A program made the position numbers and the translations under genes. Under the pieces are notes generated by a model. That model saw only the letters and a program-made list of their open reading frames with translations. It had not been told where the DNA came from and made no database searches. Source: an uncultured Verrucomicrobiae bacterium (GTDB lineage Bacteria > Verrucomicrobiota > Verrucomicrobiia > Chthoniobacterales > UBA10450). Taken from it: a stretch of 64,000 bases of DNA. The DNA lies in NCBI GenBank assembly GCA_963848215.1, contig CAWKCU010000012.1, positions 16,684 through 80,683 on the forward strand, written 5' to 3'. This document shows positions 9,070 through 14,358 of the stretch, one piece after another (the first letter of the stretch is position 1; every line of letters starts with the position of its first letter).

Positions 9070-9786
9070 CTAAGCCGCGAGCCGTGGCATCTCATCATAC
9101 GTGCGGCCTCCAAGAAGACGCCCAGTCGTGTGTTTGCGTACTCCACCCCATTGTTTGAAGAAAAACGGCACCTTTTGCTTTCGGCAGGCGGCGTATATCT
9201 CACGCACCCATTGTGTATTCATCGGCCGCGCGCCTGGCCCCGATTCGCCGCCAACGATTACCCAATGGATATTCCTCAAATCGATTCCCGCGAGTGAACC
9301 GATTAGAGGTTCACAAGAGAGGAAGCGTACCGCCGCCGGCACGCAACGTAAGTCGTCGATTCGTCCTAGAGCCGAAGCGTCCTCGACACTGACGCCCATC
9401 CACACATTGCTTGGCCAATCGATCTTTGAAGCTAGTTCGCGTACCCGGCTGCCGCGCTTCGTAAGAATTTGAAAATTGTGCTGCGGACATGCCCGCATCG
9501 TCTCGAACACCTGATGGATGAACAAAAGCGGAACATCTTGATGGAACAGATCGCTCATGGAATTCACGAATATTCGCCGCCCGGTCTTCCACGTCCGCGG
9601 CAAATCAAGCGCATCCGGATGCAGCGTTAGAGCAAAACCATTCGCGTAGCGATGATTGCCCATCGCCTGTAGTCGCTTCGCTAGGCGCTCGGCGTAGCAG
9701 TTTTTGCAGCCAGCACTCACCTTCGTGCACCCGGTCACTGGGTTCCACGTGGCTTCAGTCCATTCGATGTGAGAGTGGTCGGCCAT
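9070..9786 (-). CDS. DUF5131 / phage Gp37-Gp68 family three-Cys-motif protein
   Basis: [27 protein letters not shown] (Cys-x6-Cys-x2-Cys), [48 protein letters not shown] and FFFKQWGG all fit my recollection of the PF07505 consensus. Confidence 0.85.
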
Positions 9787-9811
9787 TTAGGAGTCGAGTT
9801 TCTTCAATAGA

Positions 9812-10675
9812 CTATCTTGCAATTTTCAATGCGATTGGTGCTCCAGCTTTATTTGCTGCTGCGAAGCAAAATAGATAAAGCGGGGAGTTTTGCGAGTTCC
9901 ACAAGACGCCTGGTTTTGAGACTGCCTCGAAAACCGATTCCAATCGTTCGACCAGAAAAGAGGTAACTTCTTCCCAGCCCGCGGTGCGCACAGTCGATAT
10001 CCGCTGAGTATCAAAGAAATCTGGCTCAGTCTCGGCGACATAAAACCTGTTGATCCATTCATGGGTACCAAAAATTCGATCGAGCGCCGCTTGCCATTCT
10101 GGCGGCGGTTCTTTGGTCCGCTGCAAGAGTCGCATGACCGCTTGCCCCAGCGGAAATAGCAGCCAGAGGTCAACAGCCTTTGTCTGCCCAAGCGCTGCTA
10201 TCGTTTCCCACTCTACTTGCATCCCGTATGGATCGAGAAAAACGACGGCGCGATTCTTATTCCAGTCCGTGTCCCGACTAAACTTTAGTAAGCGCGCGTT
10301 CGCATCACCTTGTTGAATCGTGATGCATTCTTTGTTTGGCGACCTCGCCTTCAGTGCCTCCAGGTCAGCAACCCGTGTTGGTGACTTCTCAATAAAAAGG
10401 TAGCGATCGAAGGAATGTTCTATTGCGCGACTGACGCTGCCTTGCAACAGATTGACCGCCTCCGGTTCTCCGAGCTCTGCAAAGAGGTCACTGGTTTCCG
10501 TGGCGGGGACATTCGTTCGGATCAGTCCGCTTCCTGCGAACGCATCGACGTAAGTAATCTGGAAATAGCGAGCTCGTTCGTTCCTTGTAAAAATCGAGCA
10601 GTAGGCGCTTAGGTAATCATCAAGAATTCGCAGCTTTCGCTCAGTCCAGTCACCGCCAAATTCGTGAGTCGACAT
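9812..10675 (-). CDS. tcmP: three-Cys-motif partner protein TcmP
   Basis: HEFGGDWTERKLRILDDYLSAYCSIF...ITYVDAFAGSG fits the TIGR04474 N-terminus. DAFAGSG resembles SAM-methyltransferase motif I. It lies 25 nt upstream of the DUF5131 gene on the same strand. A sampled 60-nt stretch (9821-9880) has 25/60 G+C, against 40/60 at 11701-11760. Confidence 0.8.
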   Translation of the reverse strand: MSTHEFGGDWTERKLRILDDYLSAYCSIFTRNERARYFQITYVDAFAGSGLIRTNVPATETSDLFAELGEPEAVNLLQGSVSRAIEHSFDRYLFIEKSPTRVADLEALKARSPNKECITIQQGDANARLLKFSRDTDWNKNRAVVFLDPYGMQVEWETIAALGQTKAVDLWLLFPLGQAVMRLLQRTKEPPPEWQAALDRIFGTHEWINRFYVAETEPDFFDTQRISTVRTAGWEEVTSFLVERLESVFEAVSKPGVLWNSQNSPLYLFCFAAANKAGAPIALKIAR

Positions 10676-10782
10676 ACTTCAAAAGAGATCGAGGTAACTT
10701 GTATCGTTAATGCCCATCGATGAGCAATAGCTGCGTTGAATCAGCTCGGCAGTAGCATATCTCGTCTTACCCTTCAGTTGTC

Positions 10783-10937
10783 GCTAGGCGACAAATTTAA
10801 ACACGACAAAGCAAAGCCTTGAGCCCGCGGCGAACATGGAGGGGTAGTAAAGGCCGATGATGGTGGCGTTAATTGCTTTCGGCGCATACTTCGCGAACAA
10901 GGCGAAGTTGACGGGAAGCATGCAGGCGAAGCCGATG
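10783..10937 (-). pseudogene. 3' remnant of a POT-family peptide transporter paralog
   Basis: Translates to IGFACMLPVNFALFAKYAPKAINATIIGLYYPSMFAAGSRLCFVVFKFVA*. This aligns with IAFAHLLPVSLALFARFAPKAINATIIGLYYLAFFAGN...GSGLCFVLFKFIAG of the gene at 14640..16026, minus about 28 internal residues and everything upstream. The remnant abuts the ppa stop codon directly. Confidence 0.7.
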
Positions 10938-13953: not shown

Positions 13954-14358
13954 CTATCGGCCGGGCGGCGCGACGAGAGGGATCACTTCGCGCTTGTTCC
14001 GGCGATAAACAAGAAAGTCTTGGTCGACGGTGAGGACGCTGTGCTTCGGATGCAGCTCGCTCATCCGAATGAGGCAGAGATCGGCCAGGTCTGGTTTGCG
14101 ATCACCATAGCGTTTGGCCAGGGCGGCAAGTTGGGGCAGGTGATCGTCGCAATCGAAGGCGAGCCGGATCAGATCTTCTTCGATCATTTCGAAGACGATC
14201 CCGGCATCGCCGAGATGAAATGCAGTTTCGGCCAGCACCGGCTCGCAGGTGAGAAGAGGCTCGGTGATTTGAGCGGCGACTTCTAAGGCCCAGGCATGAT
14301 ACCGATCGCGCGCATTAACAAAGGCGACGAGGAAACCGGTGTCGGCGATCCCTCTCAA
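13954..14358 (-). CDS. vapC: PIN-domain toxin (VapC-like)
   Basis: 134 aa. The N-terminal ADTGFLVAF acidic motif and the C-terminal LTVDQDF are typical of PIN. It overlaps the upstream antitoxin ORF by 4 nt. Confidence 0.75.
   Translation of the reverse strand: MRGIADTGFLVAFVNARDRYHAWALEVAAQITEPLLTCEPVLAETAFHLGDAGIVFEMIEEDLIRLAFDCDDHLPQLAALAKRYGDRKPDLADLCLIRMSELHPKHSVLTVDQDFLVYRRNKREVIPLVAPPGR

Follow-up and report, generated by a model that had tools for sequence, protein, structure and literature searches.

The pairing of a TcmP protein with a DUF5131 protein is not new. It has carried a name ever since the TIGRFAMs TcmP model, and PADLOC lists it as a defence candidate, PDC-M41. A paper using PADLOC describes PDC candidates as genes that turn up repeatedly inside known defence systems; some of these candidates have been tested, PDC-M41 not being among them. 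In the literature searched, TcmP appears in gene tables only, and DUF5131 appears in one paper only, a radical S-adenosylmethionine (SAM) classification. There, SFLD/RadicalSAM.org treats DUF5131 as a radical-SAM subgroup, by sequence only, in megacluster 5-2, beside spore photoproduct lyase in megacluster 5-3 (PMC9477430). Here we analyzed one copy of the pair, located in a 64,000-nucleotide stretch of DNA from an uncultured Verrucomicrobiae bacterium (contig CAWKCU010000012.1), which we call the window. The pair is laid out as follows:

9812-10675, minus strand: tcmP (subunit A), 287 residues, beginning MSTHEFGGDW and containing YVDAFAGSG; open reading frame (ORF) with a TIGR04474 match
9787-9811, minus strand: spacer of 25 nucleotides (nt) between tcmP and the DUF5131 gene, a tight co-directional junction typical of the module
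9070-9786, minus strand: DUF5131 (Gp37/Gp68) gene (subunit B), 238 residues; ORF with a PF07505 match

The window pair is almost certainly an intact member of the TcmP–DUF5131 module, that is, of PADLOC candidate PDC-M41. An earlier reading of the DNA letters (the sequence-only reading) had described two co-directional genes 25 nt apart, one of the PF07505 family with a Cys-x6-Cys-x2-Cys motif and the other a TIGR04474 protein with VDAFAGSG as SAM-methyltransferase motif I. These descriptions were borne out. Both ORFs are intact on the minus strand, and hidden Markov model checks placed DUF5131 at 340.3 bits on PF07505 against a cutoff of 28.9 (E 8.2e-102; residues 5-234 on model positions 2-243) and TcmP at 175.3 bits on TIGR04474 against a cutoff of 53 (E 2.2e-51; residues 9-286 on model positions 1-259 of 263). 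The three cysteines are present as C20, C27 and C30, and VDAFAGSG fits the predicted class-I methyltransferase fold. The statement that no biochemical role had been assigned agrees with the literature searched, where none was found. The label "orphan module" overstated the novelty, as the pair was already catalogued.

Our main finding concerns how the two subunits vary: B is nearly constant, and the adjacent A is hypervariable and swappable. We interpret the pair, at a probability of roughly 0.45, as a self-contained module that targets nucleic acid, in which A would provide recognition and probably methylation and B the chemistry, probably in a role of the defence type.

A nearly constant B beside a hypervariable A

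A one-genome-per-species scan with the TcmP alignment gave 498 relatives, and the locus counts in this text refer to the best 80 of these 498 unless viral loci are named. The 80 relatives come from Verrucomicrobiota, Planctomycetota, Acidobacteriota, Chloroflexota, Proteobacteria, Nitrospirota, Gemmatimonadota and other phyla, and the same two-gene module is found in more than ten phyla. The TcmP profile also matched 4773 clusters (50% identity) at E up to 1e-3. DUF5131 is immediately adjacent to TcmP in 79/80 loci, far beyond chance, as the sequence-only reading had expected when it called the pairing conserved. The gene order of the window recurs with similar spacing in about 70 of the 80 loci (tblastn-estimated gaps of about 20-35 nt), and the remaining orientations are convergent in 8 loci and reversed in 1. 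We looked for a conserved third gene in the 80 loci and found none, the next commonest neighbour cluster being present in 9/80. The distance matrices of A and B correlate (r = 0.50), and 0/999 Mantel permutations reached as high a value. The module is self-contained, and A and B are inherited together.

Two single cases are recorded here. A metagenome-assembled genome of Terrimicrobiaceae (L051 5361-6230) carries an orphan TcmP, the sole locus of the 80 without DUF5131 within about 5 kb. A 552-residue candidate for a TcmP–DUF5131 fusion (P0361) was rejected; it is a tandem TcmP duplicate.

The exchange of A can be seen directly in a relative of the window organism (L183 4940-7651). This locus is 82.6% identical to the window at the nucleotide level over exactly the DUF5131 gene and the metallo-beta-lactamase (MBL) gene that follows it (L183 6000-7641 = window 9787-8146), the limit of homology falling exactly on the start codon of DUF5131. 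At the protein level, identity is 91% for DUF5131 and 81% for the lactamase. The upstream partner in L183 is a 353-residue PDC-M30A protein (E 1.6e-89) without BLAST-detectable similarity to the window TcmP. Between the two loci, the partner gene has been swapped and the junction has stayed in place. Because the DUF5131–MBL junction is conserved in L183, the DUF5131 gene is not a very recent arrival at this site, and because L183 keeps DUF5131 at the junction with a different partner, the TcmP side is the variable, recombining side.

The same pattern is found in further contigs. Those with a B protein 78-80% identical to the window B carry at least two further partner classes, and these partners are 28-32% identical to the window TcmP or undetectable. 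We then compared 57 A–B pairs, taken from a metagenome scan seeded with the window B (L191-L270) together with four references (L183, L184, L188 and L006). The B proteins form one cluster at identity of at least 50% (median 62%), and the A proteins form 18 clusters at identity of at least 35%. Comparisons of A with A are undetectable by BLAST in 53% of cases overall, and in 40% where the B proteins are at least 75% identical. D-P-[YFW]-G is kept in most A clusters, and an N-terminal W/Y-x-x-x-K-L helix is common to the four reference A classes. The A proteins make up one very divergent superfamily. Since these motifs are shared and B is constant, PDC-M41 and PDC-M30 look like one type of system with exchangeable A subunits.

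Predicted folds of the two subunits

TcmP matches the PADLOC PDC-M41A model with E 3.8e-106 and has an isoelectric point (pI) of 5.3. Its motifs are an N-terminal W10-T-E-R-K14-L, motif I (D44-A-F-A-G-S-G50), G79-S80, E96 (motif II), D124-A-N (motif III) and F146-L-D-P-Y-G151, a variant of motif IV. Across 44 TcmP homologues there is no variation at D44, G48 or G50, and conservation of E96 is at least 90%; among paired homologues, D[AG]FAGxG occurs in 76/76 and FLDP[YF]G likewise in 76/76. The AlphaFold2 model of TcmP, built with 44 homologues, has a mean predicted local distance difference test score (pLDDT) of 82.6, and the sole disordered insert is at residues 55-75. Foldseek comparison with the PDB gave 60 matches at E up to 1e-3, with template-modelling scores (TM-scores) of only about 0.4. 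Among the 50 matches listed of these 60, nearly all are SAM-dependent methyltransferases, and those that are not are SAM-utilising enzymes of the class-I fold (AzeJ, spermidine synthase). The top six matches are DUF519/RlmJ, the 23S rRNA m6A2030 methyltransferase (E 1e-6 to 1e-5), followed by Trm1, small-molecule methyltransferases and an RsmD-like protein.

A sequence search of TcmP against the PDB gave nothing useful, and a profile search gave one marginal RsmD-like match (2fhp, E 0.066). No Pfam family was matched at E up to 0.01, the RlmJ/DUF519 model included; hhalign comparisons with single E. coli sequences gave marginal probabilities of 2-16%, and a BFVD fold search returned generic viral methyltransferases only. 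In alignments of TcmP with E. coli RlmJ, all motifs appear in the same order (TcmP given before RlmJ):

N-terminal Lys helix: GGDWTERKL, GNHADVLKH
motif I: YVDAFAGSG, YLDTHAGAG
GS segment: QGS, PGS
acidic motif II: FIEKS, LTELH
next segment: GDAN, KADG
motif IV: VVFLD-PYG, LILIDPPYE
segment after motif IV: DLWLLFP, ALWYPV

In the TcmP subfamily, the residues of these segments vary little or not at all. The TcmP segment FLD-PYG aligns with LIDPPY of RlmJ and VDPPF of RsmD, one residue short, and is similar to motif IV of Trm1, which is DPFG. These comparisons point to a class-I SAM-methyltransferase fold for TcmP, with RlmJ as its predicted closest relative. Enzymes of the RlmJ, Trm1 and RsmD type methylate the exocyclic amino group of a flipped-out nucleic-acid base. 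TcmP is predicted to be of that type, and it looks like a base-flipping amino-group methyltransferase of nucleic acid.

DUF5131 matches PADLOC PDC-M41B with E 2.3e-118 and is basic (pI 9.5). Its three-Cys motif, C20-x6-C27-x2-C30 followed by Y, is invariant in 46 DUF5131 homologues and is carried by 76/76 paired homologues. G179-G-E-S-G183 is also invariant, and a fourth Cys, C201, is conserved. The closest homologues are unusually conserved, with 77-91% identity in the 120 best clusters, and the alignment was widened with phage and divergent bacterial members. The AlphaFold2 model (pLDDT 88.3) shows the N-terminal Cys loop, then alternating strands and helices. Foldseek gave no PDB match at E below 1e-3. 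The best weak matches were NifB (E 1.9e-3), spore photoproduct lyase, anSME, LipA and MiaB, with generic TIM barrels interleaved among the radical-SAM matches; for spore photoproduct lyase, E was 3e-3 to 2e-2, the probability 0.99-1.00 and the TM-score 0.46-0.52. Sequence and profile searches against the PDB gave nothing useful, and PHROGs gave only an unannotated family.

TIGR04471, "radical SAM mobile pair protein A", matches B with E 1.5e-20 and 73.6 bits against a cutoff of 355; by this score B is a homologue of that family, not a member. Where the window protein has CX6CX2C, the DUF5131 protein of Enterocloster phage CB473P3 (L090 2912-3664) reads GCLHGCEYCYA, with the CX3CX2C spacing that is canonical for radical-SAM enzymes. 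We note that an archaeal-virus homologue (ANMV-1, L089) has a shorter Cys spacing too, about x4-5. The position of the first Cys is flexible within the DUF5131 family. Taken with the model, we consider B probably a minimal radical-SAM enzyme with a small TIM-barrel-like fold and a putative [4Fe-4S]/SAM site, and its nearest structural neighbour is predicted to be the DNA-repair enzyme spore photoproduct lyase. In one verrucomicrobial contig with the order Mrr, TcmP, DUF5131 (L001 10897-11612), the DUF5131 frame is split by a frameshift, which is seen as two tblastn pieces in different frames; the cause is either decay to a pseudogene or an error in long-read assembly.

Phage copies, neighbouring genes and the window locus

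DUF5131 is present in 180 phage records, as against 2 with a TcmP of the window type, both from Synechococcus phages; in the one Synechococcus phage locus examined, TcmP and DUF5131 are convergent. A TcmP-like ORF was found at 1/80 DUF5131 loci on viral contigs. Stand-alone phage DUF5131 genes lie in replication and recombination modules, beside RusA, RuvC, NinB, RecT, SSB, sliding clamp and replication initiators. In phages Che9c and Bakery (L087 899-4068 and L091 1421-3975), long variants of DUF5131 (324-386 residues, with insertions) are located just downstream of a C5-cytosine DNA methyltransferase gene. The methyltransferase stop and the DUF5131 start share a base in Bakery, and two small genes lie between them in Che9c. 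The DNA methyltransferases found next to phage DUF5131 belong to three classes. An obligatory coupling of the two was rejected, as an immediate methyltransferase neighbour is present in only about 6/80 viral loci; DNA methyltransferases are nonetheless the commonest annotated immediate neighbours of DUF5131 in this set. Gordonia phage Pytheas has a 60% identical DUF5131 and a distant TcmP-like "methyltransferase" in its integrase/repressor (prophage immunity) region. Overall, the phage contexts weakly favour DNA over RNA as the target.

In the 80 genome loci, the immediate neighbours of the pair are mostly unrelated housekeeping genes. The commonest neighbour families are ResIII (6 loci), N6_N4_Mtase (5), Peptidase_S24 (4) and DEAD (4), with DUF4062 (3) and RE_endonuc (2) further down, and Type III/II restriction-modification (R-M) models match at about three of the loci. 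On individual annotated contigs the pair lies beside Mrr, beside a cluster of SNF2, a DUF1156-methylase and PIN, beside MmeI, or beside Eco57I/HSDR_N; on other contigs it lies beside purely metabolic genes. In S. meliloti, the TcmP gene SMa2243 directly follows the hna defence gene (SMa2245) in a table of upregulated genes (PMC12445080). The neighbour genes lean, short of an enrichment, towards R-M. A different kind of neighbour was seen at one locus (L181 3744-9609), where the gene immediately upstream of the pair encodes a class II ribonucleotide reductase and contains an intein (LAGLIDADG domain); ribonucleotide reductase is the immediate neighbour in 2/80 genome loci.

In the window, the surroundings of the pair contain the following features:

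8118 to 9095/9098, minus strand: subclass B3 MBL gene (NF033105, 292.8 bits against a cutoff of 240)
10676-10937, minus strand: region upstream of tcmP, with a guanine-plus-cytosine (GC) content of 0.50; presumed promoter region and upstream edge of the foreign segment
about 10779-10795: palindrome TTGTCGC-cta-GCGACAA with perfect 7-nt arms
10787-10936, minus strand: transporter-like remnant, a 50-residue frame directly after the pyrophosphatase stop codon
10938-11630: inorganic pyrophosphatase gene, the upstream neighbour

An S9 peptidase gene is also among the neighbours. The lactamase gene begins within the DUF5131 gene, its ATG (9095 or 9098) falling in the final 26-29 nt, and both this overlap and the gene order are the same in L183; the lactamase may be co-transcribed with the pair. 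Elsewhere in the window, a serine beta-lactamase-family gene (PF00144) is found at 822-2117, and a 134-residue ORF at 13954-14358 on the minus strand has the look, judged by eye only, of a PIN-domain (VapC-type) toxin.

The composition of the pair is clearly foreign. The segment 9070-10937 has a GC content of 0.527, the minimum among all windows of 1868 nt in the 64 kb (mean 0.609, standard deviation 0.018) and about 4.5 standard deviations below the mean. GC at third codon positions is 0.61 in the DUF5131 gene and 0.53 in tcmP, against 0.75-0.81 in the MBL, pyrophosphatase and S9 genes. Across the family, the GC content of the module is lower than that of its flanks in 68/71 loci (mean -5.4 points) and tracks that of the host (r = 0.85); the low GC in the window is therefore a property of the module and not proof of a recent event. 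The sequence-only reading had inferred horizontal acquisition of the pair from its composition. The foreign composition stands, and acquisition of the pair as a unit is too simple, with DUF5131 kept at the L183 junction and its partner swapped.

The same reading had noted a truncated transporter remnant beside the cassette and no integrase or phage structural genes. A 50-residue frame resembling POT transporters does exist. Its four PDB matches are all POT di/tripeptide transporters, covering transmembrane helices 10-11, and all are weak (E 0.24-0.6). As a direct comparison of the peptide with E. coli DtpB was not significant, the transporter call depends on these PDB matches. The frame probably remains from a gene that disappeared as the TcmP side was inserted or exchanged. 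Among the ORFs tested within about 12 kb there was no integrase, transposase or phage structural gene, in line with the earlier reading; flanking repeats around the cassette do not exceed chance, and no tRNA target was found near it. The palindrome is located about 105-120 nt 5' of the tcmP start and covers the stop codon of the remnant; possible roles for it are those of an operator or of a small terminator. As RNA, the region upstream of tcmP folds no better than shuffled sequence (z -0.17), and no sigma-70 consensus promoter was found there. None of the 80 TcmP loci has synteny in common with the window flanks, which is shared with L183 alone, a locus reached through the DUF5131 protein.

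Proposed mechanism and comparison with known systems

In the reading that we favour, A and B would act jointly on one nucleic-acid target, DNA being more likely than RNA. A would give target recognition and probably N-methylation and would recruit B, which would reductively cleave SAM. The resulting 5'-deoxyadenosyl radical would attack the base targeted by A, or sugar or base atoms close to it. Methylation by A would protect a site, and incoming DNA lacking the mark would undergo chemical alteration or damage by B. This division of labour is suggested by the combination of a constant B with a fast-evolving, swappable A of the apparent base-flipping type, and the parallel with Type I/III R-M would favour a self/non-self module of the defence type. 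The parts of this reading differ in strength. We think it probable that the module acts on nucleic acid, we put forward a defence role tentatively, and we regard a restriction-like logic as doubtful. It is unlikely, though worth stating, that TcmP–DUF5131, PDC-M30 and the further partner classes form one family of radical-SAM-based restriction-like immune systems. There, a near-constant radical-SAM effector would be aimed by interchangeable, fast-evolving RlmJ-like subunits that also mark self, and the "restriction" step would be radical chemistry instead of hydrolysis. The nucleic-acid-modification or anti-phage role proposed in the sequence-only reading is in keeping with the listing as PDC-M41 and with the R-M leaning of the neighbours.

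Several observations weigh against the reading that we favour. Methyl transfer by A is not assured, because motif IV lacks one proline of DPPY and because DQNG or DPCx replaces this motif in some A classes. The closest structural relatives of A in the Foldseek comparison methylate RNA, not DNA. For B, radical-SAM enzymes are matched only weakly in structure (best E 2e-3, TM-scores 0.35-0.52), the Cys spacing is CX6CX2C and not the canonical CX3CX2C, and the Pfam Radical_SAM model (PF04055) is not hit, PF07505 and PF17338 being the only matches at E up to 0.01. Pfam and NCBIfam scans of the two proteins revealed neither a nuclease nor any other effector that could be recognised, and stand-alone DUF5131 is common in phages, which is awkward if B is a toxic restriction-like effector. 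The neighbour survey, made without a matched control set, gives a leaning and not an enrichment; many loci lie in housekeeping surroundings with no defence neighbours, and the window cassette too sits among housekeeping genes without them. The literature searched contains no functional study of DUF5131, TcmP, PDC-M41 or PDC-M30.

Some of these points suit other explanations better. The pair might only modify: A and then B would act on a base of the cellular DNA to make a hypermodified nucleotide, with the methyl or other SAM-derived group from A elaborated by the radical chemistry of B, and the mark would be epigenetic or protective against foreign nucleases; defence would then need separate restriction genes. 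Pairs of a transferase and a radical-SAM enzyme working on one base have precedents in Trm5 followed by TYW1 and in MiaA followed by MiaB. The cassette contains no effector domain, the module is often beside or inside R-M-type systems, and stand-alone phage copies in early or replication regions beside DNA methyltransferases fit a self-protecting DNA modification. Such a function would bring no obvious benefit in housekeeping contexts like that of the window, however, and no conserved modification-dependent or modification-sensitive nuclease accompanies the pair in the 80 loci. A swappable, hypervariable A with a constant B is also more typical of the recognition subunits of conflict systems, and we hold this explanation to be rather unlikely. 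The variability of A also weighs against an RNA-directed pair, since conserved cellular RNA targets would not predict at least 18 mutually unrecognisable A classes for one B. Here, A would be an RlmJ/Trm1-like rRNA or tRNA methyltransferase and B would modify or damage the same RNA site, as a stress or abortive-infection switch or as an addictive toxin-antidote pair. The specific structural neighbours of A are all RNA methyltransferases (RlmJ, Trm1, RsmD-like, METTL6, KsgA, TGS1), and the motif order is that of RlmJ. MiaB and LipA are among the weak matches of B, and adenines of rRNA or tRNA are the substrates of many radical-SAM enzymes, RlmN/Cfr and MiaB being examples. An addictive pair would also account for persistence among housekeeping genes. 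With phage DUF5131 lying in DNA replication and recombination modules, and with the best structural match of B acting on DNA, we nevertheless judge an RNA target of this kind improbable.

That match also invites the thought that B is a repair enzyme like spore photoproduct lyase, which would reverse a DNA lesion or adduct with A as its lesion-recognition or accessory subunit. Spore photoproduct lyase has an H-donor Cys, which the fourth conserved Cys of B (C201) recalls, and it gives the best combination of probability and TM-score for B (0.99-1.00, TM up to 0.52). The phage copies beside RusA, RuvC, NinB, SSB and RecT would fit, as would the SFLD grouping of DUF5131 with this enzyme (PMC9477430). 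Repair leaves the hypervariable, swappable methyltransferase-like partner unexplained, as well as the low GC, the patchy distribution and the R-M-rich neighbourhoods, and the fold match is weak; we give it little credence. Finally, the window cassette could be a decaying passenger without current function. Its composition is still foreign, a gene remnant lies in its upstream flank, and the relative L001 has a frameshifted DUF5131 gene. Both window ORFs are nevertheless full length against their models, and both proteins keep every residue that is invariant in the 44-46 homologues. The B proteins of the window and L183 are 91% identical as against 82.6% for the DNA over the block, which suggests purifying selection, and we consider a relic very improbable.

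The proposed defence-type reading can be set against known systems. Like Type I/III R-M in its possible working, the module would combine a conserved enzymatic subunit with a variable, exchangeable methyltransferase or specificity subunit, and the window cassette is compact, low in GC, patchy in distribution and adjacent to a gene remnant without an integrase. Unlike these systems, it has no nuclease, helicase or ATPase domain, and its would-be effector is of the radical-SAM type. R-M membership calls for a nuclease or restriction subunit with a cognate DNA methyltransferase, whereas the cassette has two genes and no nuclease domain. Ophion, a radical-SAM defence system that we also considered, is a different, three-gene system. 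Should the radical-SAM subunit turn out to be the effector, bacterial immunity would gain a new chemical principle; should the pair build a modified base, that base would add a new modification to those of nucleic acids.

At the level of single enzymes, TcmP resembles RlmJ (with Trm1 and RsmD) in predicted fold and in motif order, which runs from the N-terminal Lys helix through DxxAGxG, GS, acidic motif II and D-A/G to a motif IV followed by hydrophobic-W-x-x-P. It differs in having D-P-Y-G where RlmJ has D-P-P-Y and in marginal sequence similarity; it comes with DUF5131 and is hypervariable and mobile, whereas RlmJ is a housekeeping rRNA enzyme. B resembles spore photoproduct lyase and minimal radical-SAM enzymes in its N-terminal three-Cys loop followed by a beta/alpha barrel and in weak but consistent matches. 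It differs from spore photoproduct lyase and TIGR04471 in its length of only 238 residues, its CX6CX2C spacing, the missing Radical_SAM match and a score far below the TIGR04471 cutoff. Trm5/TYW1 and MiaA/MiaB would be similar in working, as a group transferase and a radical-SAM enzyme on the same purine, but they are housekeeping enzymes, are not adjacent in mobile cassettes and are not family-level homologues.

The closest likeness is within the PDC candidates. The window B scores 392 bits on M41B and 376 bits on M30B, and the A proteins of PDC-M41 and PDC-M30 share the N-terminal W/Y-x-x-x-K-L helix and motif I. The two differ in that the M30A partner has about 350-370 residues and the window A is of the short TIGR04474 type, and in that the M30A of L183 has FVDQNG where the window A has FLDPYG. 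The TcmP–DUF5131 family is widespread and couples two predicted SAM-using enzymes, and its constant B with a hypervariable, swappable A follows the pattern that the recognition module of a conflict system would be expected to show. Compared with other PDC-M41 members, the window pair is the same in family models, gene order and spacing, and nothing sets it apart; the value of the family lies in its function and in the constant-B/variable-A architecture documented here.

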